Source: a virus (lineage: Duplodnaviria; Caudoviricetes). Taken from it: a stretch of 64,000 bases of DNA. Positions 2-64,000 of this stretch are shown here, piece by piece. A model generated the notes under the pieces. It was not told the origin of the DNA, did no database searches, and saw only the letters and a program-made list of their open reading frames with translations. Both the position numbers and the translations under genes were made by a program. Where the stretch lies: the IMG/VR virus record IMGVR_UViG_2939311655_000001, positions 24,577 to 88,576 of that record. One strand, 5' to 3'. The stretch's first letter is position 1, and every line of letters starts with the position of its first letter.

Positions 2-283
2 TGGATAACCATCACGAAGAAGGAAGTCGGGCAGCAGCAACGCCAGTTCCGCATCCGGGCCGCGGACGTCACAGGAACCAGGCTCAAGCCCGGCACCCGC
101 CTGTTCCACGGCTACGTGCAGTTCCTGCTGCCAGGAAGCGCCCCGGCCACGGAGACGAAGGGCCTGATGGCCGGTGGCCGGCCGCCGCAGTCAGACCCGC
201 ACAGCCTGTCGATCCGGCACAGCGCCAACGACGCCGCCGCGAAACTCGTCGCAGCCGTCGAGCAAGCCCGGCCTACCCCGTGA
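2..283 (+). CDS. DUF4429-like protein, 5'-truncated by window edge
   Basis: Frame +2, not in the ORF track: WITITKKEVGQQQRQFRIRAADVTGTRLKPGTRLFHGYVQFLLPGS...AAKLVAAVEQARPTP, TGA at 281-283. The WITI...KP...GYVQF..PG pattern matches my recollection of DUF4429. Confidence 0.6.
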   Translation, partial: WITITKKEVGQQQRQFRIRAADVTGTRLKPGTRLFHGYVQFLLPGSAPATETKGLMAGGRPPQSDPHSLSIRHSANDAAAKLVAAVEQARPTP

Positions 284-635
284 CCCGGTCGGCAGCGAAC
301 TGCACAGGGCCGCGGGTGCCCGTGAACGGCGACTGATGCCAGTCTCCCGGCTCACCCGTCACCTCGCACACCTGGCCACGGATCCGAAACTGGTCCGTGG
401 TCAGCACGCTCGTGTCCGGCGGGGCGTACACAGTGAAGCCGACAACCACTGTGTCCCTCTCCTGCTGCTGAGCGCCGCCCACCTGCGGAGTCTCCGCACG
501 CGGCGCCACCACGCAGCCGACGATCGGCGTCTCCGTCATCAGCCCGGGAATCGGCTGCCCCCGAGGGTCCCGACCGGGCGACGTGCCGCGGCGGAGCCGC
601 ACGATCGTCTCCCCATACGGGTAAGGAGCAGGCAT
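273..635 (-). CDS. Head-closure / head-tail joining protein
   Basis: Start reassigned to MPAPYPYGETIVRLRRG (TGATG overlap with the upstream gene). GRDPRG...DQFRIRGQVCEVTGEPGDW..PFTG is typical of actinophage head-closure proteins; position fits. Confidence 0.75.
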   Translation of the reverse strand: MPAPYPYGETIVRLRRGTSPGRDPRGQPIPGLMTETPIVGCVVAPRAETPQVGGAQQQERDTVVVGFTVYAPPDTSVLTTDQFRIRGQVCEVTGEPGDWHQSPFTGTRGPVQFAADRVTG

Positions 636-1048
636 CAGCCATACCCCCAGCCGGGCTCGAACTCGTCCGCGAAGCCAGCATCGTCGACCGGCCACGTCGG
701 CGACGGATCCGCCGTAGCTGGTGTCGGATCCACCGTGAACGCGCCTCCCCGGCCCGCGAGACTCTTGAGTGCAGCCTTGTCGGCCTTCGTCAGATACAGG
801 CCGCCCGAACCAGACGGGCGCTGCACCGACATCGGGCCGATCGTCTCGTAGCTGACCTGCTGCGGATTGACGTAAGCACGCCCCGCCACCGACAGAACAA
901 CCGCAGTCGCCTGAGCCGGCAGCGGCTTCACAACAGACTCAGCGAGAGCTACCGCCTGCTGGATCAGCAGATCCGCCCGGTCCCCCTGGATCTCATCCAT
1001 ACCGAGGTACATGCCGAGCTGCTCAGCCGTCGGAGCAACGAACACCAT
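635..1048 (-). CDS. Head-to-tail adaptor
   Basis: 137 aa with RAYVNP...ETIGPMS...GGLYLT..D motif of actinophage adaptors; downstream of capsid. Confidence 0.8.
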   Translation of the reverse strand: MVFVAPTAEQLGMYLGMDEIQGDRADLLIQQAVALAESVVKPLPAQATAVVLSVAGRAYVNPQQVSYETIGPMSVQRPSGSGGLYLTKADKAALKSLAGRGGAFTVDPTPATADPSPTWPVDDAGFADEFEPGWGYG

Positions 1049-1057
1049 CGAGACCTC

Positions 1058-2089
1058 CTACCGGGTCAGCCCTTCGACCGCATCGCACCACACGGACAGT
1101 TCGGCCTCCGGATCCAGCTCCGCGCTCCGGGCCTTCGCCCGCTTCGACGCCAGCCGGTACTCGGCCGGCGCCAGCAGCTTGCGGATGACCGCCTCGTAGC
1201 CCTCGACGTCCTCACGGTCGACGAAGACCCCGGCCTCACCCAGCGACTCGCACAGCCCCGGGGTGGGGTGCGCGACGACGGGGATACCTGAGGCGAGCGC
1301 CTCACAGCCGGCCCGCCCCCACGACTCGTAGGAACTGGGCATGAGCAGCACCTTCGTGCGGGCGTACACCTTCTCCCGCATCTCCTCGCCACGGACGTGC
1401 TCGACGATCTCCACGTTCGGCAGGTCCGGGAGGATCTGCTCGCCGTAAGCGCCCCGGACCGCCAGGAACTCCTGGTCAGGCATCCGCTCCGCCAAAGCCC
1501 GAAGGACCTTTCCGCCCTTCTCAGGGTTGCAGTTCACCAGCGTGATGGCCTTGCCGGGCTTCGTTGCGTACTCGTCGGCGAACACCGGAGGACGCACGAT
1601 CAGCTCGCTGCCCGGCCGGACGCCCTTCGGGTACTCGGCAAAGAAGAGCTCCGCCTCCCTCTGCATCCACTCTGAGTTGTAGACAGCCAAGGCCGTGCCG
1701 CCAGCCGCAGCATCACGGAACGTCGGACGGTGCGTGTTGTGGCAGACCACCACCAGCGGGGCCCCGTAGCCGCGGGCCATCGCAGCCGTCGACGGAACGG
1801 TCTCCAGATGGGCGATCAGGGCGTGCGCCCTTTTCACCGCCGTCGGAAAGTCCAGGCGGGCTTCCAGGGGAACCACCTGAATCCCCCGGTAGTCGTACAC
1901 CTCGTGAGCCTTCCCGTACCGGGACAGCCACACCTGCACATCGTGCCCGCGCTCCGCCAAAGGCCGCAGCATGGAGACGAGCATGTGCTCGGCCCCCGCA
2001 TTGTGTTCCGGCGGCATCGCATGAACACGGGCCACGATGCGCAGCGGCTTCGCGGTCCCGCCCGGCGCGGAGGCCGGGACCGCAGCCAT
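1058..2089 (-). CDS. Glycosyltransferase family 4 (GT-B fold)
   Basis: N-terminal H.MPP.HNAGAE. C-terminal LLMPSSYESWGRAGCEALASGIPVV contains the GT4 E-x7-E motif. Confidence 0.92.
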   Translation of the reverse strand: MAAVPASAPGGTAKPLRIVARVHAMPPEHNAGAEHMLVSMLRPLAERGHDVQVWLSRYGKAHEVYDYRGIQVVPLEARLDFPTAVKRAHALIAHLETVPSTAAMARGYGAPLVVVCHNTHRPTFRDAAAGGTALAVYNSEWMQREAELFFAEYPKGVRPGSELIVRPPVFADEYATKPGKAITLVNCNPEKGGKVLRALAERMPDQEFLAVRGAYGEQILPDLPNVEIVEHVRGEEMREKVYARTKVLLMPSSYESWGRAGCEALASGIPVVAHPTPGLCESLGEAGVFVDREDVEGYEAVIRKLLAPAEYRLASKRAKARSAELDPEAELSVWCDAVEGLTR

Positions 2090-3045
2090 CAGCTACCGCT
2101 CGGGGTGCCGGTGAACTTCACGAACGCCTGCGCGTCGCCCTGCACGTAGCCGTAGTACGCCTCCGCGAGGATCAGCACCAGGTTCTCCTGGAACGCGGAG
2201 TGCACGCCGCCCTCCTCGTCGACGTAGGTCGCCTCCTTCGAGATCCGCACGGTGATGTCCATGCCGACCCCGTAGGCCGCCTGCGACCAGTCGCCACCGA
2301 TCGCCCGCAGCCCTGAGTCCGAGCTGGTGGACTGACGGCGCTGCTTCCCCGACACGCTGCGGGAGTACGCCAGCGGCTCCCCGATCAGAGTGCCTGCCGA
2401 CGCCATCTGCGTCCCCGGCACCGTCGTGTCGACCAGGATCGGCCGGCCCGTCGTGTCCGTGGCCAGCAGCAGCTTCGGCTTCAGGCGGTGGTCGGCGATC
2501 GTGCCGGTGTAGTCCCAGTCCTCGTCGATGACCTCTTCCATGCCGGTCACGAGGTCCGCCCAGATGCCGCCGTTCGCCTGAGCGGCCGTACCCAGCGTCA
2601 CCGAGTTCGTGGTCATCGCCAGGTAGTCGGTGAACGGGCCCGCCGCGCCCTTCATGGTGAGGCCGTGGATCGCTGCGTGGTCGAAGGCGCGGGCGAACGC
2701 CGTCGGCAGGTCACGCTGCAGCTGCTCGTACAGACCGCCCGCGTTGGTCATCGCGACCTCTTCGGCGACCGGAATGAGGACGGCGACCTTCTTCGCCGTC
2801 ATCTGCTTGATGCCGACGCTGGACGTCGACAGGGGCTTCTTCGCCGCCTGCCCCACCCAGTCCGCGGTCGGGACATCCATCGGGATCGGGACGCTGGTCG
2901 TCGCGTCGATCGCCAGCGGCGCCGGCCGCGCCAGCGCCATCACCGCCGACTGCTCGACGGACTTCTCGAAGATCGGCGCCGTGATCGTTCGCGGCAGCAG
3001 CGCGGCATTAACATCGGACAGCTTCAGGGGAGCGGTAACCGCCAT
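2089..3045 (-). CDS. Major capsid protein (HK97 fold)
   Basis: 318 aa with LLP..I...IF, KKVAVLIPVAEE, AFD.AAIHG, GDWSQ and FQENLV motifs; follows scaffold. Confidence 0.93.
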   Translation of the reverse strand: MAVTAPLKLSDVNAALLPRTITAPIFEKSVEQSAVMALARPAPLAIDATTSVPIPMDVPTADWVGQAAKKPLSTSSVGIKQMTAKKVAVLIPVAEEVAMTNAGGLYEQLQRDLPTAFARAFDHAAIHGLTMKGAAGPFTDYLAMTTNSVTLGTAAQANGGIWADLVTGMEEVIDEDWDYTGTIADHRLKPKLLLATDTTGRPILVDTTVPGTQMASAGTLIGEPLAYSRSVSGKQRRQSTSSDSGLRAIGGDWSQAAYGVGMDITVRISKEATYVDEEGGVHSAFQENLVLILAEAYYGYVQGDAQAFVKFTGTPSGS

Positions 3046-3064: not shown

Positions 3065-3700
3065 CTACTTGAGCTGCGACTTCATCCACCCGGCGAACTC
3101 ATCCGCCGGGGTGAGGGGGCGTGTCTTATTGGCACCGGACGCCTGAGTGCGATCCGGTGCAGGACGCCGCGGGCCCTCCTGGGGCTGGACTCGCGCCCAG
3201 TGCGGCTTGCGCTCCAACAGCGCCTGAAGGTCGGCCTCAATGGCCGCCTCGTCGATGTCGCCATCGCCGTCGATGTACGAGTCGAGATCCAACGCACCGA
3301 CCGCATCCTCCGGGTCCGCGAACCCGGCACCGGCCAGCGCCTGCACCTGGGACTTCACCAGGCGCTTCCGGGTCGCCGCGATCCGTTCCTCCGCAGCCGC
3401 GAGCTTGTCCGCGAGACGCTCGGTGTCCGTCTTCTCCGCGTCCTTGATGGCCTGGAGTTCGACCTGGGCCGCCTCGGCCTTCTTGAGGCGTTCGCGAAGG
3501 TTCTTGGATTCCGAGTTGGCCTTGCGGATCTTCGCTTCGGCCTGCTTCCGGTCGAACGGCTTCTCCTCGCCGCCGGCGTCCGCCTCCTGGGCGTCCTCCG
3601 GCGACTCGGCGCCATCCGTCTCCTCGGCGGTCGTCTCGTCGACGACCTCCTCAGTGCCGGCCTCGGACTGCTGCTCGGTGCTCTCGTTGTTCTCAGGCAT
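3065..3700 (-). CDS. Capsid scaffolding protein
   Basis: Acidic N-terminus, coiled coil (KIRKANSESKNLRERLK), FADPEDAV and PAPDRTQ motifs; lies just upstream of capsid. Confidence 0.85.
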   Translation of the reverse strand: MPENNESTEQQSEAGTEEVVDETTAEETDGAESPEDAQEADAGGEEKPFDRKQAEAKIRKANSESKNLRERLKKAEAAQVELQAIKDAEKTDTERLADKLAAAEERIAATRKRLVKSQVQALAGAGFADPEDAVGALDLDSYIDGDGDIDEAAIEADLQALLERKPHWARVQPQEGPRRPAPDRTQASGANKTRPLTPADEFAGWMKSQLK

Positions 3701-11184: not shown

Positions 11185-11504
11185 CAGCCGGTCACCGCTT
11201 CGTAGGTGGCGGCGAAGATGTCGGGCTTGCAGGGGTAGAACTCGCCCTGAACGCCGCGGATGACGTAGTCGCCGAGGCTGACCTTCATGTCGCCTTCGAG
11301 GGTGCGGATGACGATGAGCCCGTCAGCCGGGTCGATCGTGACCCCGGCGGCGACCGGGCTGTATCCGGGGCCGTCACCGGCGGGTTGGGTGGATCCGATG
11401 TAATTCTCGACCCACTGGTAGACCTCCATGCCCTGGGTGGGGGTGGCGTCAGCGGGAAGAAGCATCGCTTCGATCTCGACTGGCTTCTTGCGGTATCGGG
11501 CCAT
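11184..11504 (-). CDS. Conserved phage protein (PGDYG-like)
   Basis: RYRKKPVEIEA...IRTLEGDM....GDYVIRGVQGEFYPCKPDIF..TYE signature. Confidence 0.85.
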   Translation of the reverse strand: MARYRKKPVEIEAMLLPADATPTQGMEVYQWVENYIGSTQPAGDGPGYSPVAAGVTIDPADGLIVIRTLEGDMKVSLGDYVIRGVQGEFYPCKPDIFAATYEAVTG

Positions 11505-12154: not shown

Positions 12155-13024
12155 TCAGTCGTCGAGTGCCCGCCGGATGCCCTCTTCCAAGGTCACCGCA
12201 GGTTGGTAGTAGCCGAGCATTCGCGTCGGGTCGCACACCCGGTGGTGGACGCCTTGGAGTGCGGCTGGCAGGTGCTTGATCCGGGGCGTGTAGCCGGCTG
12301 CGGAGGTGACGTATCCGGCGAGCTGGTCGAAGCTGGTGGCGCGACCCCAGCCGAGGTTGACCGGGCCTGTGACGTCTTGGTCGACGGCGGCAAGGGTGGC
12401 GCCGACGACGTCGTCGACATGGATCCAGTCCCGCGTGCTGCGGCCGTCGCCCCAGACTTCGAACGGGTCGTCGCGGCGCTTGGCCCGGGCGATGAACGCC
12501 GGGAACGGGTAGCAGTCGTCCTGATCCTCGCCGTAGCCACTGAATGGCCTGAGCACGTGGACGCGGCACCCTTCGGCTTCGGCGACCTTGGCGAGCTGTT
12601 CGCCGACGACTTTGGCGATGCCGTAGGTGTTGTCGGGCCGGCTGATGAGGTCGAGGTCGATGTCGTCCTCGGCGAGGCGGTGGATGTCACCGGGCTGTTG
12701 CAGGTCGACGGGGTACGCCGCGCTGCTACTGAAGTACACGGCGCGCGGGGTACCGGTGCGTATGAGCCACCGGAAGTACCAGGCGTCCAGCGCGAGGTTC
12801 GTAGCAACGCCGAGGGGGCTGCCGTCGATGCTGGCACGGCCGCCGACGATGGCCGCGCAGTGGATCGCGAGGTCGTAGCCGCCGTTGTCGTAGCGGAAGA
12901 AGTCGAGGGCGTCGGAGTGGCGGCGTTCGTAGTCGACACCGAGGACGTCATGGCCGCAGGCTTCGAGGGCCTGGTGCAGGTGGCGGCCGATGAAGCCTTT
13001 GTGGCCGGTGAGCAGGACGTGCAT
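12155..13024 (-). CDS. NAD-dependent nucleotide-sugar epimerase/dehydratase (extended SDR)
   Basis: LLTGHKGFIG (GxxGxxG), HCAA, FSSSAAY, YGIAK (YxxxK), WGDG...RDWIHVDD. Confidence 0.93.
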   Translation of the reverse strand: MHVLLTGHKGFIGRHLHQALEACGHDVLGVDYERRHSDALDFFRYDNGGYDLAIHCAAIVGGRASIDGSPLGVATNLALDAWYFRWLIRTGTPRAVYFSSSAAYPVDLQQPGDIHRLAEDDIDLDLISRPDNTYGIAKVVGEQLAKVAEAEGCRVHVLRPFSGYGEDQDDCYPFPAFIARAKRRDDPFEVWGDGRSTRDWIHVDDVVGATLAAVDQDVTGPVNLGWGRATSFDQLAGYVTSAAGYTPRIKHLPAALQGVHHRVCDPTRMLGYYQPAVTLEEGIRRALDD

Positions 13025-13623
13025 CAGCTGTCCACCTTCACTGCCCGGTAGACGCCCCACGGCAGGTCGGACTCGACGGGTTCGAGCCCGAGCTCGGTGC
13101 ACGCTTCGCTCTGCTGTTGCGGGGACCAGGTGGTGACGCCGATCCAGCTGTCTGCTTCGGCCGGCGTGTCGGAGAGGGGCCAGTCGAGGACGAGGATCCC
13201 GCCGAGCTTGGTGGCGGCCCGAAGCTTGCCGATGATGTGTAGGCAGTCCTGGTGACTGTGGTGGATGAGGACGGCGAGGCTGTAGACGGCGTCCATGCGG
13301 CGGCGGCCGAGGTGCCCGGCGATGCCGTCGGCGTCGGCCTGGACGGTGGTGAGGTCGGGGGCGCGCTCTGTCAGCCGGTCAAGCATGTTCTGGGAGGAGT
13401 CGACGGCGGTCACCTCGTAGCCCAGAGCGGCGAGCGGGATGGCGACACGTCCGTCACCGGCGCCGAAGTCCATGACCTTCACCCCGTCGGGGATGACGGT
13501 GGCGAGCATGTCGGCCTGCGCCCGGCCGGAGTCCCAGTAGGCGTCCTCGGAGACCTGCCGCAGGGGGTGGATCGCGGTGGGGTCGGCCTGGTCCCACGCC
13601 TTGATGACGTCGTCGGCGGACAT
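13024..13623 (-). CDS. Class I SAM-dependent methyltransferase
   Basis: VMDFGAGDGR motif I, VTAVDSS, DAVYSLAVLIH, GGILVLD. Confidence 0.9.
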   Translation of the reverse strand: MSADDVIKAWDQADPTAIHPLRQVSEDAYWDSGRAQADMLATVIPDGVKVMDFGAGDGRVAIPLAALGYEVTAVDSSQNMLDRLTERAPDLTTVQADADGIAGHLGRRRMDAVYSLAVLIHHSHQDCLHIIGKLRAATKLGGILVLDWPLSDTPAEADSWIGVTTWSPQQQSEACTELGLEPVESDLPWGVYRAVKVDS

Positions 13624-14696: not shown

Positions 14697-16907
14697 CTAC
14701 AGCTGGGTGATGACGAGGTTCCGCCAGAACGGGCGGACAGCCACGTCGGTGATGCTGCCGTTCGACAGCCCGAAGTAGGCGCCACGGTTGGTGACGTCGG
14801 CGACGACCCCGGTGGTCCAGAGGGGGTTACCGAGGCGCCGGGACTCCACCGTGGTCGGGGTGATGTCGATCTGGAACGACATGGACTGGCCGGCGACGGG
14901 CGCATCGGTCTGGACGTCAGCGCCGATCGTGATGCCGCCGGTCTGTGTGCTCAAGTGGCGGGAGAACCGCATGAACCCGTTCTGCCGGATCAGCCAGTGG
15001 TAGCCGTTGCTGGCGTTCAGGGTCGAGAATTCGTACACGTCGTCGGACGCTTTGCCGAGGTAGATCCCGCCGTGAAGGGTGAGGTCGCTGGCGCTGAGGG
15101 CGTCGTACTTCATGTCGAAGCTGATGCGATACCCGCCGGCCCCGGGGACGATGGGGCAGTAGCGGCCGAGCCCGTAGGTGCCCTTGGATCGGTTGATCGA
15201 CACCCAGCCGAGGTTGGCGCCATCCTCGAATTTGAGGGATGACGAGCTGTCGTAGTCCGTCATCGGGGTGCCGCCGGAATCCTTGATCTGGAGGTCCCAG
15301 CGGCTCGCGGTGGCCTTCGCGGTGGCGTCTCGGACGTACACGGGGTCGCTGGACATCAGCCCGACGACTCCGTCAGCCTCCAGCGCTGCACGCTGCGAGC
15401 GCCGGTAGGCAGGCCACGAGAAGACGGGCTTCCCGCGGGCAACGATCTGCTGTCGGCGCGCGGAAGGCATCGTGGTCTGAACGCCCCAGTAGTCGACTTG
15501 GGCGTCCTTTCCGTTGATCGTGGCGTCAGTGGTGGCGTCGTCGAGATAGCACCAGGTGCGGAACCCGTTCGCCTTCGGCCAGGTGAACGACGTCCCAACG
15601 TGGGCCTTCCAGATCACGGACTGGTTGGCCTGTGGATACGACGTGGCCAGCAGGTTCTGGAGGGGGACGACGGAGTCGTTGCCCTTCGGCTCCAGGAACA
15701 GGACGACGCCGCGGCCGAGGTACTTGTCGAGGATCTTGCGGAGCGGTACGAGCGGCTGGTCCGTCCAGCCCTGCCCGAGCATGACCCGTCCGTTCGTCAA
15801 CACCTTGTTGGCGAGCCCGGTCGACGGGTACGTGTTCAGGGCGCCGGCGCTGTACGTCGTGCGGTCGAGCGTGGTGTCATGGATGCACCACAGTTGCCCC
15901 TCTGAGTCGACGTTCACGGAGATCTCGAAGGCCTGGATGCCGTGGGCGACGGCGTAGTCGTAGGCGGCCTCGGTGTGTTCCGGGGCGACCATGCCGGCCC
16001 CGCGGTGACCGAAGATTTTCGTGCCGGGCTGGGCCATGAATGCGTCTACGGTGAGCAGCGCCTTGGGGAGGTAGAGGGCTGCTGCGGATGCTGCTGCTGC
16101 GCTGGTGGCCGCGGTCTGTGCTGTCGCCGCCTTGGTCGAGGCGTCGGATGAGGCCGTGCCAATCGCGGCCGTGCGAGCGGCATCAGCCTTGTTGGTCGCG
16201 TCGGTGGCCGCGGCGCTGATGGCGGCGCTTTGGGCGCCGGCGGCTTTCGCTGTGGCGTCGGTCGCGGCTGCGCTGATCGCTGCGGTTTGGGCGTTGTTGG
16301 CTTTGGCTGTGGCGTCTGTAGCTGCGGCGTTGATGGCTGCGACACGGGCGGTGGTTGCGGAGCCGGCGGGGTCGTATGCGGTGTTCGAGCGTGCGACTTC
16401 TGCGGTGATGGCGTTGTCGGTGTACTGCTCGGCATCCGCGTTGGATCCGTCGGCACCGTCGGCACCGGCGGGGCCGGCGGGGCCGGGGTCGCCTTGCGGT
16501 CCGGGCTCCCCGTCGACTCCTGGTGGGCCTTCGGGCCCGGTGATGATGATGTAGTCGCCTTCGTTGGAGGAGGCGGGGGTGATCGCGGGGAGCTTCACTG
16601 CCGGCGCGCTGGCGGGGAGTTCGGTGTAGAAGTCATCGCCCGCGGCGTCGGGAAATGCAATGACGACGCGGTAGGTGAACCCGGTGGGGTTGATGCCGGG
16701 GGCGTCGGTCGCGAGGACGGTGAGGCTGACTGCACCGTTGGCGTCGAACTTGGCCTTCGCCCGGCCCTGCACGGTGTAGCCGGTGTCAGCGGAGACGACC
16801 TTGCCGGGTACGGGGGTGATGCTGACGGACCCCTTCATGGGAGATCCGTCGGGGTGGGTGTAGGTGCCGGTGAGGGTGACGGTAGGGAGGTCGTCGGGCA
16901 GCGCCAT
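14697..16907 (-). CDS. Fibre-like protein: anchor domain, collagen repeat, Ala-rich stalk, glycerophosphodiester phosphodiesterase (GDPD) domain, C-terminal beta domain
   Basis: About ten G-X-Y triplets and 18-aa AISAAATDATAKA-type repeats. GDPD motifs IFGHRGAG..APEHT, CIHDTTLDRTT, LEPK, GLMSSDP. Confidence 0.85.
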   Translation of the reverse strand: MALPDDLPTVTLTGTYTHPDGSPMKGSVSITPVPGKVVSADTGYTVQGRAKAKFDANGAVSLTVLATDAPGINPTGFTYRVVIAFPDAAGDDFYTELPASAPAVKLPAITPASSNEGDYIIITGPEGPPGVDGEPGPQGDPGPAGPAGADGADGSNADAEQYTDNAITAEVARSNTAYDPAGSATTARVAAINAAATDATAKANNAQTAAISAAATDATAKAAGAQSAAISAAATDATNKADAARTAAIGTASSDASTKAATAQTAATSAAAASAAALYLPKALLTVDAFMAQPGTKIFGHRGAGMVAPEHTEAAYDYAVAHGIQAFEISVNVDSEGQLWCIHDTTLDRTTYSAGALNTYPSTGLANKVLTNGRVMLGQGWTDQPLVPLRKILDKYLGRGVVLFLEPKGNDSVVPLQNLLATSYPQANQSVIWKAHVGTSFTWPKANGFRTWCYLDDATTDATINGKDAQVDYWGVQTTMPSARRQQIVARGKPVFSWPAYRRSQRAALEADGVVGLMSSDPVYVRDATAKATASRWDLQIKDSGGTPMTDYDSSSSLKFEDGANLGWVSINRSKGTYGLGRYCPIVPGAGGYRISFDMKYDALSASDLTLHGGIYLGKASDDVYEFSTLNASNGYHWLIRQNGFMRFSRHLSTQTGGITIGADVQTDAPVAGQSMSFQIDITPTTVESRRLGNPLWTTGVVADVTNRGAYFGLSNGSITDVAVRPFWRNLVITQL

Positions 16908-17645: not shown

Positions 17646-18029
17646 CTAGGTCAGTACGGATTCGGCCCAGCATTCCTCAGTGCAGGTGTCGCCGTCGTGC
17701 GGCAGCCCGGCATCGTCGATGTCGCCGAACGGCACGATGCGGGCGGCGTTGAGGAACCATGCGCCTTTCGGAGTGAGCCAGGATCCGTTGATGGTGGAGC
17801 CGTGCTCGATGAGGCCCGCGGTGTCGAGTGTCGACATGACGATGTGGTGGACGGCGCCACCGCCGGTGAGGGTTTCGGCTTGGTGCCAGCGCTGGTCTTC
17901 GTAGAGGGGGCAGAGCGCGAGCAGGTCTCGGACGAGGTTGTAGGCGTCGTCGGGGTTGCCGCATCCACACAGTCCGAGGTCCACGTAGACGATCAAATTC
18001 AGGTGCTCAAGCGTGCTCTCGTTGCTCAC
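17646..18029 (-). CDS. Hypothetical protein
   Basis: LGLCGCGNPD...LIEHGSTINGSWLTPKG winged-helix-like ending. Confidence 0.7.
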   Translation of the reverse strand: MSNESTLEHLNLIVYVDLGLCGCGNPDDAYNLVRDLLALCPLYEDQRWHQAETLTGGGAVHHIVMSTLDTAGLIEHGSTINGSWLTPKGAWFLNAARIVPFGDIDDAGLPHDGDTCTEECWAESVLT

Positions 18030-18448
18030 GGCGCCCACTCCTCGCCTTTGTGGTCGGGGTGGTTGATGAACGATCGCGCAAGGATGCGGAGCGTTCGACA
18101 GGGCCAGTCCGTGGGGTATTCGTTCGGCTCGCCGCTGCCGCAGGTCTTGCAGTACTGCCGTGGGCTGCCGGGCCAGTAGCGGCCCCCGGGACTGTGCTCC
18201 TCGACGATGGCGAGCTTGACGCCGAGGTCGGCGATGACGTCGGCCGGGTCGTTGGCGGCGATGAACGTGGCGGTGTTCCGGGTCTGGTTGCTGCTGAGGG
18301 CGAAGACGTCGGCGACGAGGATGCCGTCGTGGGCGAGGACTTCTTCAGCATCGTCCGGGTTGACCTTCCACGGCCAGGGGGCTGCGGCTTCGGCGATGGC
18401 CCGCCGCTCCGCGTACCGGTCGCGGAGGAACTGGACCAGGTCGGTCAT
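18026..18448 (-). CDS. DUF6221-like protein
   Basis: MTDLVQFLRDRY.E...FIAANDPA.VIAD...K..IV..H...C..C...WPCRTLRILA..F..HPD...EW.P. Confidence 0.8.
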   Translation of the reverse strand: MTDLVQFLRDRYAERRAIAEAAAPWPWKVNPDDAEEVLAHDGILVADVFALSSNQTRNTATFIAANDPADVIADLGVKLAIVEEHSPGGRYWPGSPRQYCKTCGSGEPNEYPTDWPCRTLRILARSFINHPDHKGEEWAP

Positions 18449-24089: not shown

Positions 24090-24317
24090 ATGTCGCCGAA
24101 CGCACCCAAGACCCCCGCCCGCCAGATCCGCATCGGGGACACCTGGTACGACTTCGACGCCGGCGCCAAGGCCATGGACACGGAGCGCGCGGCCGTAATC
24201 CGCGAGCTCATCGACTGGTACATCCGCGAGCCTGGGGCCAAGCTGCCCGCTCGACCCGATCGTGAGGTCATTGAGTCGGCCCGCGAGGCGCGCACCATGA
24301 AGGTGGTGTCCGAATGA
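24090..24317 (+). CDS. Ribbon-helix-helix (Arc/CopG-like) regulator
   Basis: TPARQIRIG.TW.DF...A.....ERAAVIRELIDWY..EPGAKLP.RP. Confidence 0.75.
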   Translation: MSPNAPKTPARQIRIGDTWYDFDAGAKAMDTERAAVIRELIDWYIREPGAKLPARPDREVIESAREARTMKVVSE

Positions 24318-24862
24318 TCCGCCGCAAGACTCTTGTCGAGGTCGACGTTTTCGCCTCCGAAGCCCACACGGGCCAGGTCGACAAGATCGGCGTGCCGTAC
24401 ATCGAGCACGTGCGCGCAGTGGCCGCCGGACTCGCATCGTTCGGTGACGAACTCGTCATGGCCGGGCTGCTGCACGATGTCATCGAAGACACCGACTGGA
24501 CGGCCGAGCAGCTGCGCGAACAGGGCATCCCGGATCGCGTCGTCTCTGCCGTGGAGGCTGTGACGAACCAGCGGGGTGTGCCCTATGAAGAGAAGATCCG
24601 CCGCATCATGACGAACAGCGATGCCACCCTCGTGAAGATCTCGGACAACGCGCACAACAGCCGCCCCGACCGGGCCGCACAGCTCCCCGACGAGAAGCGG
24701 GCCCGCCTCGCCGCGAAGTACCGGGCCGCACGCGATGTCCTGTGGGCGGCTGCCGACGACCGGGACATCGAAGCCATCATCACGATCGTCAACCCGTCGC
24801 TTCTCGCGGAACTCAGCGACCGAAAGTCCCCCGCCCAGCCCGACTCGGGGAGCAGCAAGTGA
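24314..24862 (+). CDS. HD-domain hydrolase, RelA/SpoT-hydrolase-like (small alarmone hydrolase type)
   Basis: AHTGQVDKIGVPYIEH, AGLLHDVIEDT, VEAVT, LVKISDNAHN. Confidence 0.85.
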   Translation: MIRRKTLVEVDVFASEAHTGQVDKIGVPYIEHVRAVAAGLASFGDELVMAGLLHDVIEDTDWTAEQLREQGIPDRVVSAVEAVTNQRGVPYEEKIRRIMTNSDATLVKISDNAHNSRPDRAAQLPDEKRARLAAKYRAARDVLWAAADDRDIEAIITIVNPSLLAELSDRKSPAQPDSGSSK

Positions 24863-25074
24863 CCGACGCCCAGGATCGGATCGATGTCGTGCTCGACGTC
24901 TACTCCGAGCCCGACGCCTACCGAGTCGTCGTGGTCGGCGTCTTCGAGCCTGGCCAGCCGGTTCCGCCCGCCCCTGAGGGCGCGACACGGAATGTCGTGC
25001 AGTCATTCATGGGGGTAGCGATGAACACCCGCGCCTTCCGCCTGGGTGTACCCCGAGCCGAGGAGTCCGCATGA
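24859..25074 (+). CDS. Hypothetical protein
   Basis: GTGA- and ATGA-coupled on both sides. Confidence 0.55.
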   Translation: MTDAQDRIDVVLDVYSEPDAYRVVVVGVFEPGQPVPPAPEGATRNVVQSFMGVAMNTRAFRLGVPRAEESA

Positions 25075-25571
25075 CCGACGACCTGGTGCAGTTCATTCGC
25101 GCCCGCCTCGACGAAGACGAGCGGGCGGCGCAGCGCGCCGACCCGGGGTCATGGACCCTTCGCACCCTCGGCCGTCACGACCTGGCCGCTGTCAAAACAG
25201 AGAGCGGGTTGATGCAGCTGGACGGATCCCGCGCCACGGCCAACGCCGTCCACATCGCCCGCCATGACCCGGCCCGCGTCCTCCGCGAGGTGGAGGCCAA
25301 ACGTCTGCTGCTGGAGCAGGCGGTCACCAGCCGCCACCTCGTCACCGGGGACCAGTTCATGGATTGCCCGCTCGTCACCGAAGCCGACGCGGATCATGTA
25401 GAGCGCATCCAGGCACTCAACGACATGTACCGCGAGGAGCTCGGCCGAGAACCGAGCTGCATCGAAACCTGCGGCCGGGACGCCCGAGTCCGTCGCACCC
25501 TTGAGCTACTGGCCATGCCGTACAGCGATGACCCGGGGTATACACAGGCCCTGGCAGCCAACCGGGCGTAG
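25071..25571 (+). CDS. DUF6221-like protein (second paralogue)
   Basis: MTDDLVQFIRARLDEDE...HIARHDPARVLREVEAKR...TLELLAMPYSDDPGY. Confidence 0.85.
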   Translation: MTDDLVQFIRARLDEDERAAQRADPGSWTLRTLGRHDLAAVKTESGLMQLDGSRATANAVHIARHDPARVLREVEAKRLLLEQAVTSRHLVTGDQFMDCPLVTEADADHVERIQALNDMYREELGREPSCIETCGRDARVRRTLELLAMPYSDDPGYTQALAANRA

Positions 25572-47519: not shown

Positions 47520-49262
47520 TCACGCGGCGGCCTGGAGGTCGGTCGTGGTGCCGCAGTCCTGCGGCGTGTGGATCAGGGCCCGGAGGCGGGTGCCGATCCA
47601 TTCGCCGACCTGCGGGCTTACGGCGTTGCCGAAGCCGTCCACCTGGTTGCGGGCGGAGCCCCAGACGGTGAAGGTGCCGCGGTAGTCGTTGAAGTCGACG
47701 TCGAAGCCGCAGCCACGGCCGATCTCGTGCGCGGCCATCATTCGGTAGAAGCAGTCCTCAAGGGGCAGTTCGGCGAGCGAGGCCTGCCACTGGGCCATGA
47801 GGAGCGCGGTCGTATCGTGCGCAGTGAGGGTGCCGAGCGGGTCCGTGACCGGGTGAGGTGCGGTTCCGTGCCCCGAGGTCGTTCCGTTCTGCTTGTACCA
47901 GCCGGCGGCCGTCAGGACCGCCGGGATCTGCTCCGAGGTGAAGGTCGGCATCGCCTCGCTGTGCACGGTCGGCAGGGTGTTCTTTCGGTACGGGAGGACG
48001 CCGGAGGAAAGCATGGCGAGGGTCTCCGACCCGACCTGGGTGGGGAGAGGGTCGCCAGCGCCCCGCGCGGCGCCCTGGAAGTTGTCGACCGCGAGCGCCA
48101 TCGTCGGTACCGCTTTCGGAGCCCAGAGCGGCTGAATGACTGGGCCGGTCGACAGGATTGCGGTCTCCTGCTGGCTGGTCTGCGTCGCCATCGGCTGCAT
48201 CAGGAGACGCTCTGATCCGTGCACGCCCTTCGCGGGCATGAGGATTGCGGGGAAGTCGGCGAACCGCTGGCGGCAGCGTTCCGCGCGTGCCATCGACGAC
48301 CGTGCGAGCGGTCCGACGAACCCGTCCTTGAACGTCTTGACCGGCTTGTCGCCGATGCGTGTGCCGAGGTCGGTGAGGTCGAGCGCGGCCAGCGACGGAG
48401 TCATCGGCGGAACGATCGGGCGACGGCAGGAGGGGCACCGGTACTCGTACTGCTTGCCGTACATCACCGTCCCGGTCGCAGGGATGCCGGTTTTCCACGT
48501 CCACACCGCTTCGACGTCCCGGTCGCAGCGTCCACAGCGGGATACGGGGCGGTGCTCCAGGTCGGGCATCGGCAGGGACTTGTCGACGAAGACCCAGTAG
48601 CCGCGGTCCCTGGACTGCGGAACCCCGAAGAACTGGCTGTTCAGGTACAGCACCTTGGGCGGGTGGTAGTTGAGCAGTTCGAACTGCTTGGTCCACCACC
48701 GGTACGTCGATCCGTCCCCGACCTTCGGCCGGCCCGGCAGTGCAGGCCCCCAGGAGGTGAGCTGGGTGGTGCACTCGACGAGGATGAGCCGCGGGTGGTG
48801 TGTCTGGGCGTAGTGGAGCACGCAGTTCGCGGTGGCCCGGTCCCGCTCGGACTTGGTGACGCGCGCGTCGTAGTCGGGGTCCTCCAACTCGAACAGGGTC
48901 CCGCCCTGCTCGTAGGCCTTGACCGTGTTGGCGAGCGAGTGATTCACGCAGCTGACGCCAGCGACCAAGAGGTCTGCGGCGGGGAGGTCGCGGGCGGAGT
49001 GATAGTCCGCCGCCTCGGGGTCGGCCAGGTCGGCGATCCAGTGCTCGGCGTCCGGGTGGTTCGCCTCGTGGACCTCGACCTTGTAGCTGTTGTGGTTCGC
49101 GGCCATGATCGTGGTGAATCCGGCGCGCTTGATGCCATCGGTGAGTCCCCCGAAGCCGGAGAACAGGTCGACGGCGATGTACTCGTCGTGCCGGAAGTGG
49201 CGACGGCGGGTGGCCGGACGATGCGTGGCCGTGCGGGGCAACTTCTTGGACGGTGCGGCCAT
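47520..49262 (-). CDS. DNA (cytosine-5) methyltransferase, orphan
   Basis: DLFSGFGG (motif I), AANH, GVSC (IV), VEC (VI), PQSRDR (VIII), YRM...EI (IX), GNAVSP (X). Confidence 0.88.
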   Translation of the reverse strand: MAAPSKKLPRTATHRPATRRRHFRHDEYIAVDLFSGFGGLTDGIKRAGFTTIMAANHNSYKVEVHEANHPDAEHWIADLADPEAADYHSARDLPAADLLVAGVSCVNHSLANTVKAYEQGGTLFELEDPDYDARVTKSERDRATANCVLHYAQTHHPRLILVECTTQLTSWGPALPGRPKVGDGSTYRWWTKQFELLNYHPPKVLYLNSQFFGVPQSRDRGYWVFVDKSLPMPDLEHRPVSRCGRCDRDVEAVWTWKTGIPATGTVMYGKQYEYRCPSCRRPIVPPMTPSLAALDLTDLGTRIGDKPVKTFKDGFVGPLARSSMARAERCRQRFADFPAILMPAKGVHGSERLLMQPMATQTSQQETAILSTGPVIQPLWAPKAVPTMALAVDNFQGAARGAGDPLPTQVGSETLAMLSSGVLPYRKNTLPTVHSEAMPTFTSEQIPAVLTAAGWYKQNGTTSGHGTAPHPVTDPLGTLTAHDTTALLMAQWQASLAELPLEDCFYRMMAAHEIGRGCGFDVDFNDYRGTFTVWGSARNQVDGFGNAVSPQVGEWIGTRLRALIHTPQDCGTTTDLQAAA

Positions 49263-49363
49263 CAGACGGCCTCCTTGGTGTGGCGGTTGGTGACTGCCGA
49301 GTGGGCGCACGGAACCAGGGCCCCACGGTTCGGGTTGTCTTTCGAAGTGCTGGCGTTCCGTTG

Positions 49364-49429
49364 ATAGCCAACATACACTTGGACACATGAATGTTGGCTA
49401 TGGTTGTGCAACTGGATGTGGACACATCC
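49364..49429. promoter_or_regulatory. Inverted-repeat operators at divergent promoters
   Basis: ATAGCCAACAT 49364-49374 / ATGTTGGCTAT 49391-49401; palindrome GGATGTG-GA-CACATCC at 49414-49429. Confidence 0.55.
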
Positions 49430-62638: not shown

Positions 62639-64000
62639 ATGCCGGGATACATCGAGGACCGCTGGTACACCAAGCGGCCCGACCCCGAGACCGGGAAGCG
62701 GCGCGAGACAGCCCGCCACGGGCAAGGCAAGCGCTGGCGCGTCGCAGGGATCCCCGGCGTCCGGGACCGCAGCTTCGAGAAGCTGGAAGGTGTGCACGGC
62801 GCAAAGGCGTGGCTGAAGAAGTCCGCAACTGACGCCTCGTCCGGTGAGTTCTACGATCCGCGCGACGGCTCGATGCCCCTGCGGGACTATGTAGAAGAGC
62901 ACTGGTGGCCAACCGTGCGCTATCCGCCGACTACAAGGCCGTCTGTGCGGTCGCGGGTCTTCGGGCACATCCTTCCGCACGTCGGAAGTCTGGCGCTGAA
63001 CCGGATCGGCTTCGACGAGATCAAGGCGTGGCAAGTGCGCGCTGAACAAGACATCGACGTCGGGACGCTCGCCGTCACCTGGGCGCACTTCTCTACGATC
63101 CTGCAAGCGGCGTACAAGGCCAAACGGATTCCCACGAACCCCTTCCGGGACCCCGACCTTCGGGCGCCGCGCATTCCCACCAGCAAGGCGTTTGCCTGGC
63201 CCCAGGACACTGTGGCAGCTGTGCAGGCCGAACTCCCGGATCGATATCGCATCCTGGTGAGCCTGGCGGCAGGAGCCGGTCTGCGGCAGGGGGAGGCTCT
63301 CGGCTTCTCGCCCGACGACATCAAGGGCGAGGACATCAGGGTTGTCCGGCAGGTCCTGAAGGTGAATGGGCACTTTGCGTTCGGGCCGCCGAAGCGGAAC
63401 AAGGAGCGGGACGCGCCATGCGCTCCTGAGCTGGCGGCGGCCATCAAGGAGTACGCCAACCGCTTCCCGACCCTTGAGGTCACACTGCCCTGGATCGATC
63501 CGGACCGACCGAACATGGCGTGGGAGGACCGGCCGATGCGGACCGTGCGGCTGTTGGTCACCACGCAGTTCGGGAACTGCATCAACAAGGACACGTTCAA
63601 CGACAAGCGCTGGAAGCCGGCGCTGGCCAATGCTGGCCTCATCCCCGCGGCAACGGTGACGTTGGTGGAGCCGAAGAAGGGCAAGAGTGCGTGGCGCAAG
63701 GAGAAGTGGGTAATGCCGCGCGAGTACGGGTTCCACGCCCTCCGGCATACGTTCGCCAGCCTCGTCCTGTCTGAGGGTGAGACGATCACGCAACTGGCTG
63801 CGTGGTTGGGTCACTCGGATCCGGCGTTCACGCTTCGGACCTATGTGCACTTCATGCCGAAGTCGGGGAACCGTGGCCGGGCCGCGCTCGGGCGATTCCT
63901 GACCGGCGGTGTGGAGGCGGCTCCCGCCCTCGGTGCGACTCCCAGCACGGCGATTCCTAATGGATCTCCCCAGATTCTCCCCAACGACTCAACGGCATAG
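62639..64000 (+). CDS. int: Tyrosine recombinase / phage integrase
   Basis: Catalytic set GLRQGE (R), PPKRNK (K), FHALRH (HxxR), LGH and TLRTYVH (Y). Confidence 0.96.
   Translation: MPGYIEDRWYTKRPDPETGKRRETARHGQGKRWRVAGIPGVRDRSFEKLEGVHGAKAWLKKSATDASSGEFYDPRDGSMPLRDYVEEHWWPTVRYPPTTRPSVRSRVFGHILPHVGSLALNRIGFDEIKAWQVRAEQDIDVGTLAVTWAHFSTILQAAYKAKRIPTNPFRDPDLRAPRIPTSKAFAWPQDTVAAVQAELPDRYRILVSLAAGAGLRQGEALGFSPDDIKGEDIRVVRQVLKVNGHFAFGPPKRNKERDAPCAPELAAAIKEYANRFPTLEVTLPWIDPDRPNMAWEDRPMRTVRLLVTTQFGNCINKDTFNDKRWKPALANAGLIPAATVTLVEPKKGKSAWRKEKWVMPREYGFHALRHTFASLVLSEGETITQLAAWLGHSDPAFTLRTYVHFMPKSGNRGRAALGRFLTGGVEAAPALGATPSTAIPNGSPQILPNDSTA

Follow-up and report, generated by a model that had tools for sequence, protein, structure and literature searches.

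A glycosyltransferase gene beginning on the capsid stop codon of a Streptomyces prophage, and the probable glycosylation of serine-ended capsid and tail-tube proteins

According to papers that cite the original work (Freeman et al. 2023, Cell Host Microbe 31:1216), the proteins of capsid and tail tube in the mycobacteriophages Che8, Corndog and Myrna are glycosylated by phage-encoded glycosyltransferases, and two of the genes concerned, Che8 gp110 and Corndog gp38, are essential. Going by the same citing papers, particle glycosylation has been shown chemically for only a few mycobacteriophages; a paper on Rhodococcus phages goes no further than to suggest glycosylation from gene content. Here we describe a 64,000-nucleotide stretch of viral DNA, called the window in what follows, which corresponds to bases 24577-88576 of the 88,576-base IMG/VR record IMGVR_UViG_2939311655_000001 (IMG/VR class: provirus). 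In this prophage a glycosyltransferase gene begins on the stop codon of the major capsid protein gene. Freeman et al. are said to have reported in 2023 that such phages carry O-linked glycans at the C terminus, and to have noted putative enzymes in some Gordonia and Streptomyces phages as well. Judged by its genes, our prophage probably has the same sort of virion glycosylation and the same kind of end tag as the mycobacteriophages, whereas its enzyme is not homologous to theirs and its genes are arranged in a new way.

In the list of open reading frames (ORFs) the capsid gene occupies positions 2089-3045 of the minus strand and encodes 318 amino acids ending in ...FVKFTGTPSGS, which agrees with the end ...FTGTPSGS given in the preliminary description of this DNA. 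The proposed acceptor tail, TGTPSGS, is encoded by 2092..2112 (minus strand). The glycosyltransferase ORF (1058-2089, minus strand, 343 amino acids) begins on the capsid stop codon: the minus strand reads ...AGC TGA TG, and a single A is shared between the TGA (2089-2091) and the ATG (2087-2089), giving a one-base overlap in the sequence TGATG (2087..2091). The gene of the tail-tube (major tail) protein lies 0.9 kb outside the window (L003:11118-11705, minus strand) and encodes 195 amino acids with matches to phrog_117 and phrog_476. The preliminary description had left it as a question whether this protein also retains a terminal Ser. It does, since its C terminus is ...LPVTPVYTGS. With TGTPSGS on the capsid and VYTGS on the tail tube, Gly-Ser is therefore the end of both subunits that are repeated over the surface of the particle.

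The same ending is found in the mycobacteriophages. The Che8 capsid and tail-tube proteins end in ...NKTGS and ...YSDGS and those of Corndog in ...PLVGS and ...IKGDS, as compared to ...TPSGS and ...VYTGS here; all are Ser-terminal and most have Gly-Ser. The tail-tube proteins of Che8 and Corndog share phrog_476 with that of our prophage. In Corndog the enzyme genes (gp36-38) also adjoin the capsid gene, and in Che8 a methyltransferase accompanies the enzymes (gp108 combines a GT2 domain with a TylF-type methyltransferase), as a separate methyltransferase gene does in the window. The enzymes themselves are different: Che8 has three GT-A proteins, gp108-110 (GT2, GT2 and GT25), whereas the enzyme of the window is of the GT-B type, and a BLASTP comparison of it with gp108-110 gave nothing significant (best E 0.029 over 48 residues). 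Thus, an acceptor-like ending is shared and the enzymes are not. Our prophage further differs from the mycobacteriophages in having one enzyme (two paralogues in some lineages), the start of whose gene lies on the capsid stop codon, and in being a temperate phage of a Streptomyces host. Glycans have been shown in the mycobacteriophages, as far as the citing papers tell; for our prophage they are predicted from its genes. In the openly available literature, the supplementary files of Freeman et al. excepted, there was no account of this enzyme family, of its coupling to the capsid gene, or of glycosylated Streptomyces phage particles.

To compare relatives we pooled 151 loci of the capsid clade to which the window belongs, i.e. 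80 loci from IMG/VR, 68 from genomes, the window locus and two more, with distinct proteins counted once. The IMG/VR loci come from a scan for the enzyme that gave 93 confirmed loci, 80 of which were kept. The genome loci come from a scan with a capsid alignment over one genome per species and are mostly from Streptomyces, the others from Nonomuraea, Embleya, Streptosporangium, Sphaerisporangium and Wenjunlia. The enzyme gene directly follows the capsid gene in 80/80 IMG/VR loci, in 68/68 genome loci and in 7 further Streptomycetaceae loci. Of 148 related loci, 127 have overlapping stop and start codons (TGATG in 112, GTGA in 15); the two codons are 1-5 nucleotides apart in 15 loci and farther apart in 6. 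An overlap kept so often means that the arrangement of capsid and enzyme genes is no chance feature of one genome. One Streptomyces genome (L103:6957-7573) has about 570 nucleotides between the conserved TGATG start with the first enzyme codons and the remainder of the gene, which looks like an insertion near the 5' end.

All 121 distinct tail-tube proteins of these loci end in Ser, although they are 49-100% identical to the protein of our prophage and the penultimate residue is variable (GS 94, LS 10, AS 7, SS 4, and others). Among the 131 distinct capsids the last residue is Ser in 109, Thr in 18 and Ala in 4. The expectation that relatives with the glycosyltransferase retain the terminal Ser is therefore borne out in full for the tail tube and for most capsids; for the remaining capsids what is kept is a hydroxyl residue at or beside the C terminus. 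The codon for the last Ser is TCC (79), TCG (17) or AGC (13) in the capsid genes and TCC (111), AGC (6), TCG (3) or TCT (1) in the tail-tube genes. Both Ser codon families are in use at the last position, and the constraint therefore points to the amino acid. In the scaffold, enzyme, adaptor and neck proteins of the same loci, which served as controls, the last residue is variable, with an entropy of 2.3-3.1 bits.

Relatives that lack the enzyme have other ends. Absence was judged over whole genomes for five isolated phages and over the 9-11 kb examined at five prophage loci. The capsids of the prophage loci are 25-31% identical to that of the window, and four of the five are about 40% identical to the capsids of a second clade that does have the enzyme. 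No enzyme homologue lies within the 9-11 kb; the capsids end in ...NSVA, ...TVGA, ...SVGA, ...VLKY and ...TTVP and the tail tubes in ...VPTA, ...WSAA and ...WDAS. Similarly, the enzyme profile matched in none of the five whole genomes of phages Spartoi, Gsput1, Lederberg, Catfish and Wocket, each with a homologous capsid or tail protein; the last residues there are I, A, A, V and P in the capsids and T, P, P, N and P in the tail tubes. The closest enzyme-less capsid homologue, that of Rothia phage Spartoi, ends in ...DAFVKYTI as compared to ...QAFVKFTGTPSGS in the window, and capsid matches from isolated phages stop at residue 311-312 of 318. Thus the tail of the clade capsids is a short extension. 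In total, none of 10 capsids from enzyme-less relatives has a terminal Ser, and of their 8 tail tubes one has; among other ORFs it occurs in 17/182 at the novel loci and 4/65 in the window. When proteins are clustered at 50% identity, Ser-majority capsid clusters number 4/5 with the enzyme and 0/6 without it (Fisher p 0.015), and the corresponding numbers for tail tubes are 9/11 and 0-1/6 (p 0.002-0.035), the samples being small and the clusters not fully independent in either case. The idea of the preliminary description that this virion is glycosylated in the way of the mycobacteriophages thus has in its favour the Ser ends of both proteins and their absence from relatives without the glycosyltransferase. 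What did not hold is a likeness of the enzymes, which in the mycobacteriophages are unrelated GT-A proteins, and the glycosylation here is deduced.

The enzyme is found outside the capsid clade as well. Among 401 Streptomycetaceae genomes searched, the capsid was present in 19, and twelve places were examined. At four loci with capsids about 60% identical to that of the window, the enzyme is present together with a different tail module (tail tubes of phrog_117), and the swapped-in tail tubes still end in Ser (...LGAGS, ...LDAES, ...LGTAS and ...LGAAS). At a further locus, L165, the capsid is only 26% identical and ends in ...TTAAS; there are two paralogues of the enzyme, one encoded after the capsid gene and the other after the adaptor gene. 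This two-paralogue arrangement marks a second prophage lineage, represented by L165, L178, L181, L189, L234, L240 and L247. A profile scan of IMG/VR gave 76 new loci, 25 of them outside the capsid clade, where 19 capsids and 15 tail tubes were confirmed with PHROGs. Capsids of other lineages that are only 24-33% identical to that of the window, in DNA with a G+C content (GC) of 0.45-0.72, mostly show the same pairing, with exceptions. Of those confirmed here, 14/19 capsids and 10/15 tail tubes end in Ser. Examples of capsid ends are ...IAELS, ...ATAGS, ...PKSSS, ...AGANS, ...NPSGS (contig GC 0.52) and ...NTVGS (contig GC 0.45). At the last of these loci (L245:1677-4726) the major tail protein gene comes right after the capsid gene and the enzyme gene next but one, the two protein ends being ...NTVGS and ...IALNS.

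In our copy of INPHARED, the only isolated phage with an enzyme homologue at E<=1e-5 is Streptomyces phage TurkishDelight (two records of the same phage). Its gp20, annotated merely as 'glycosyltransferase', is 39% identical to the enzyme of the window. It is encoded between a capsid gene and a major tail protein gene, both products of which are Ser-terminal (...PGSTS and ...FCVAS). In contrast to the window enzyme, gp20 is a 678-residue tandem double GT4 protein; its neighbours belong to families unrelated to those of the window (phrog_777 for the capsid, phrog_792 for the tail), and there is no stop/start overlap at the capsid gene.

Regarding the enzyme itself, the window ORF matches PF13692 (Glyco_trans_1_4; 51.9 bits, E 1.3e-13, cut-off 27) and PF00534 (Glycos_transf_1; 46.3 bits, E 4.5e-12, cut-off 26.4). 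The GT4 N-terminal families stay below threshold (PF13579, 24.9 bits with a cut-off of 29.7; PF13439, 24.5 bits with a cut-off of 28.5), and all NCBIfam matches are far under their cut-offs. In PHROGs it belongs to phrog_26352 (E 5e-166), a family without a named function, and also matches the glycosyltransferase family phrog_2170. An AlphaFold2 model from 53 sequences (predicted local distance difference test, pLDDT, 94.7; predicted template modelling score, pTM, 0.91) has two Rossmann-like domains including a full N-terminal one. Foldseek relates the model to MshA, BshA, PimA and PglA with template modelling scores of 0.71-0.75 and E values of 1e-11 to 4e-14, which indicates the two-domain GT-B fold. 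The top ranks are retaining GT4 enzymes, namely methylmannose-polysaccharide mannosyltransferase, MshA, BshA, PimA and PglA. Residues H117, K191, E255, G258, E263 and E281 are invariant in the 53 sequences, which are 35-91% identical to the window enzyme. E255 and E263 (codons at 1301..1327, minus strand) have the E-x7-E spacing, and this motif together with the conserved His and Lys belongs to the donor site of GT4 enzymes. The catalytic residues being invariant, the enzyme looks active. We therefore regard it as an apparently active, soluble, GT4-like protein of GT-B fold with its catalytic residues intact, as far as sequence and model allow.

The source annotation calls a shorter protein (P0014, 304 amino acids) that starts at Met40 and so lacks the first strand and PPxHNAGAE, a stretch conserved in the family. 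Residues 17-39, which this start would drop, are conserved across the family, and we therefore prefer the ATG at 2089 as the more probable start. Relatives of the enzyme are numerous: of 8000 candidates scored, 1382 proteins reach E<=1e-5; there are 663 and 6899 representatives at 50% identity matching at E<=1e-30 and E<=0.001, respectively, and, from a profile scan, at least 585 IMG/VR stretches that encode one. Their public names are generic ('glycosyltransferase family 4 protein', also 'glycosyltransferase involved in cell wall biosynthesis'). A defence role was considered and dropped; PADLOC gave no match and the Pfam GT4-conflict match was weak (32.3 bits). With the retaining GT4 enzymes of GT-B fold (MshA, BshA, PimA, PglA and GtfA) the window enzyme shares the two Rossmann-like domains, a Glycos_transf_1 match above cut-off, and an E-x7-E motif along with the conserved His and Lys. 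It differs from them in being shorter, in having 12-22% sequence identity with them, and in its proposed acceptor, a protein C terminus, which none of the top matches uses. GtfA is the protein O-GlcNAc transferase of the serine-rich adhesins of pneumococci.

We consider it likely that the C-terminal tails of both the capsid protein and the tail-tube protein are O-glycosylated late, in the cytoplasm, by one enzyme that acts on two tagged substrates; genes and sequence comparison both point this way. Ribosomes that finish the capsid would re-initiate at TGATG, so that the enzyme would be made together with the capsid and at a lower level. It would draw on a nucleotide-sugar of the host in the cytoplasm and transfer the sugar to the hydroxyl of a Ser or Thr at the free C terminus or one or two residues from it. 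The acceptors would be short tails of Gly, Ser, Thr and Pro, i.e. TGTPSGS of the capsid and PVTPVYTGS of the major tail protein. If these tails are exposed on the outside of the head and the tail tube, the whole particle would bear sugar. In soil such a coat could protect against proteases, change adsorption or stickiness, or act by masking.

Several points weigh against this interpretation. The support consists of genes and of comparisons of sequence and structure, from which we infer the glycan itself. Conserved last residues are also found in proteins that are not candidates, since the head-closure protein ends in Gly in 128/128 cases and the tail terminator in Ser in 102/124. A conserved last residue alone therefore proves little. 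The codons of the capsid tail overlie the expected ribosome-binding site of the enzyme gene, and part of the conservation of this tail could for that reason be at the nucleotide level; the tail tube is exempt from this argument. Four capsids of the clade end in ...SGSA, so that Ala is terminal. Outside the clade, one lineage (L173-175 and L237) has Thr-terminal capsids and tail tubes ending in ...TP, the tail tube of L176 ends in ...KSG and the capsid of L211 in ...GSN, and L228, where the capsid is of another family and the enzyme gene is non-adjacent, has the capsid end ...TVA. No enzyme-less member of the capsid clade was found among the 80, 68 and 7 loci, which makes a contrast within the clade impossible. 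The enzyme-less set is small and consists of what the searches happened to turn up, and absence was judged for this enzyme family only. Finally, the enzyme has no homology to those of Che8, and the substrates of the nearest solved enzymes are small molecules, lipids or polysaccharides; the protein-modifying GtfA comes at rank 31.

These last substrates lead to another explanation, in which the enzyme modifies a host envelope polymer or a lipid-linked precursor late in infection and the Ser ends are unrelated structural features. An altered receptor could let the progeny escape trapping on debris, or other phages could be excluded. The closest solved folds are indeed enzymes of envelope or small-molecule glycosylation (MshA, PimA, PglA and the methylmannose-polysaccharide mannosyltransferase), relatives carry the public name that refers to cell wall biosynthesis, and the conserved ends of the head-closure and tail-terminator proteins fit as well. 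Still, we find this unlikely: across lineages the gene stays directly after the capsid gene or within the neck genes and away from those of lysis or lysogeny, its start and the capsid stop overlap at 127 of 148 loci, and there would be no explanation why the Ser ends of two unrelated virion proteins go along with the glycosyltransferase and are missing in relatives without it. Phage DNA as the substrate is highly improbable. GT-B glucosyltransferases of T4 do glycosylate phage DNA, and the window has a gene for a C5 cytosine DNA methylase at 47520-49388. However, a domain resembling a hydroxymethylase or a thymidylate synthase was absent from the 60 window ORFs scanned, an incomplete set restricted to ORFs with third-position G+C content above 0.8. 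Moreover, this is an integrated temperate phage with an integrase (62639-64000), the DNA of which is replicated by the host as a prophage, and the gene lies in the head operon, not among replication genes.

It may also be that the virion is modified by a route other than both terminal serines: on one of the two proteins only, at internal Ser or Thr residues, or on another structural protein, or that the enzyme itself is associated with the head. The site of modification cannot be read from the sequence, genes following a capsid gene often encode head-decoration proteins, and the exceptions to terminal Ser (L173-175, L176, L211 and L228) speak for this explanation. We nevertheless hold it to be quite unlikely, because the tail tube ends in Ser in 121 of 121 proteins while its neighbours vary, because Che8 and Corndog share the ending on both proteins, and because the invariant catalytic residues speak against a purely structural role. 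For the same reason the enzyme as a structural decoration protein was ruled out. O-mannosylation of the Pro/Thr/Ser tail by a host Pmt-type pathway was likewise dismissed, since this pathway acts on proteins during secretion.

The late genes surrounding the pair are arranged as expected from the preliminary description, which had placed a GT4 gene with a TGATG overlap between the capsid and adaptor genes; ORFs, sequence, Pfam and PHROGs all confirm it. Read along the minus strand, Pfam and PHROGs give the order small terminase, large terminase, portal, VG15/MuF-like protein, scaffold, capsid, glycosyltransferase, adaptor and head closure, followed beyond the window by the neck protein, tail terminator, major tail protein, chaperones and tape measure. 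The scaffolding protein gene (3065..3700, minus strand; phrog_4708, E 3e-16) adjoins the capsid gene upstream. The capsid protein matches PF05065 with 80.1 bits (E 2.4e-22, cut-off 24.2) and phrog_10 (E 2.4e-40), and actinophage capsids are its best sequence matches in the PDB. Together with the neighbouring scaffold gene this identifies an HK97-type capsid; a fold model from a 10-sequence alignment reached a pLDDT of only 28.6. The gene of the head-tail adaptor Ad1 (635..1048, minus strand; phrog_137, E 4.3e-12) begins 9 nucleotides past the glycosyltransferase stop, and that of the head closure protein Hc1 (phrog_501, E 1.2e-22) is listed at 273..695 (minus strand), with a true start that may lie further in. 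A terminal Gly is found on the head-closure protein in other lineages too, and in most members of the clade the tail terminator ends in ...HPVS. From the small terminase gene to the head-closure gene no promoter-like site was found, and the sole site resembling a terminator is a hairpin at 3756-3738. One tight late operon holds the genes of the capsid, the glycosyltransferase and the adaptor.

Two genes elsewhere in the window could belong to the same pathway. One resembles nicotinamide adenine dinucleotide-dependent epimerases/dehydratases of sugar-nucleotides (12155..13102, minus strand; PF01370, E 3.2e-36), its best NCBIfam match being GDP-L-fucose synthase, far under cut-off. The other encodes an S-adenosylmethionine-dependent methyltransferase (13024..13623, minus strand; Methyltransf_25, E 3.4e-13). 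The two genes overlap, upstream of those for the HNH protein and the terminase. Three of five related virus records have the pair, and the other two have neither gene. Where present, they may tailor the sugar; the pairing of the enzyme with the Ser ends does not depend on them. Elsewhere in the window, well away from the tail module, lies the gene of a 736-residue protein with a collagen-like repeat and a glycerophosphodiester phosphodiesterase domain (14697-16907, minus strand); enzymes of this type could cleave polymers like teichoic acids. There are also two DUF6221 genes on opposite strands (18026-18448, minus; 25071-25571, plus), an HD-domain gene at 24314-24862 and a WhiB gene. When the first 12 kb of the window were compared with isolated phages by megablast, the sole match was at 11193-11311 (60-120 nucleotides, 83-92% identity), in hypothetical genes of 11 Gordonia phage records.

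The distribution of the enzyme allows a broader proposal, which we put forward tentatively and with somewhat less than even confidence. Genes of the phrog_26352 family occur in at least 585 viral contigs that range from high-GC actinobacterial prophages to phages of GC 0.45. The family may be a large, so far unnamed group of protein O-glycosyltransferases that recognise a short flexible tail with a free C-terminal Ser, one enzyme tagging both head and tail tube. If so, sugar-coating of the virion would be common among temperate soil phages and no oddity of the mycobacteriophages, and would have arisen at least twice, with unrelated enzymes converging on the Gly-Ser tag.

If our interpretation is true, the trait would be widespread in prophages of Streptomyces and other actinobacteria, considering the more than 150 loci examined and the at least 585 viral contigs with the enzyme family. 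The Gly-Ser end tag on capsid and tail tube would be a convergent acceptor signal, and virion glycosylation would become predictable from genomes. The system would be a minimal one, with a single enzyme and a tail some seven residues long, and could find use in the site-specific glyco-tagging of proteins. It would also matter for the survival and adsorption of phages in soil and for designing therapeutic phages whose surfaces are altered.

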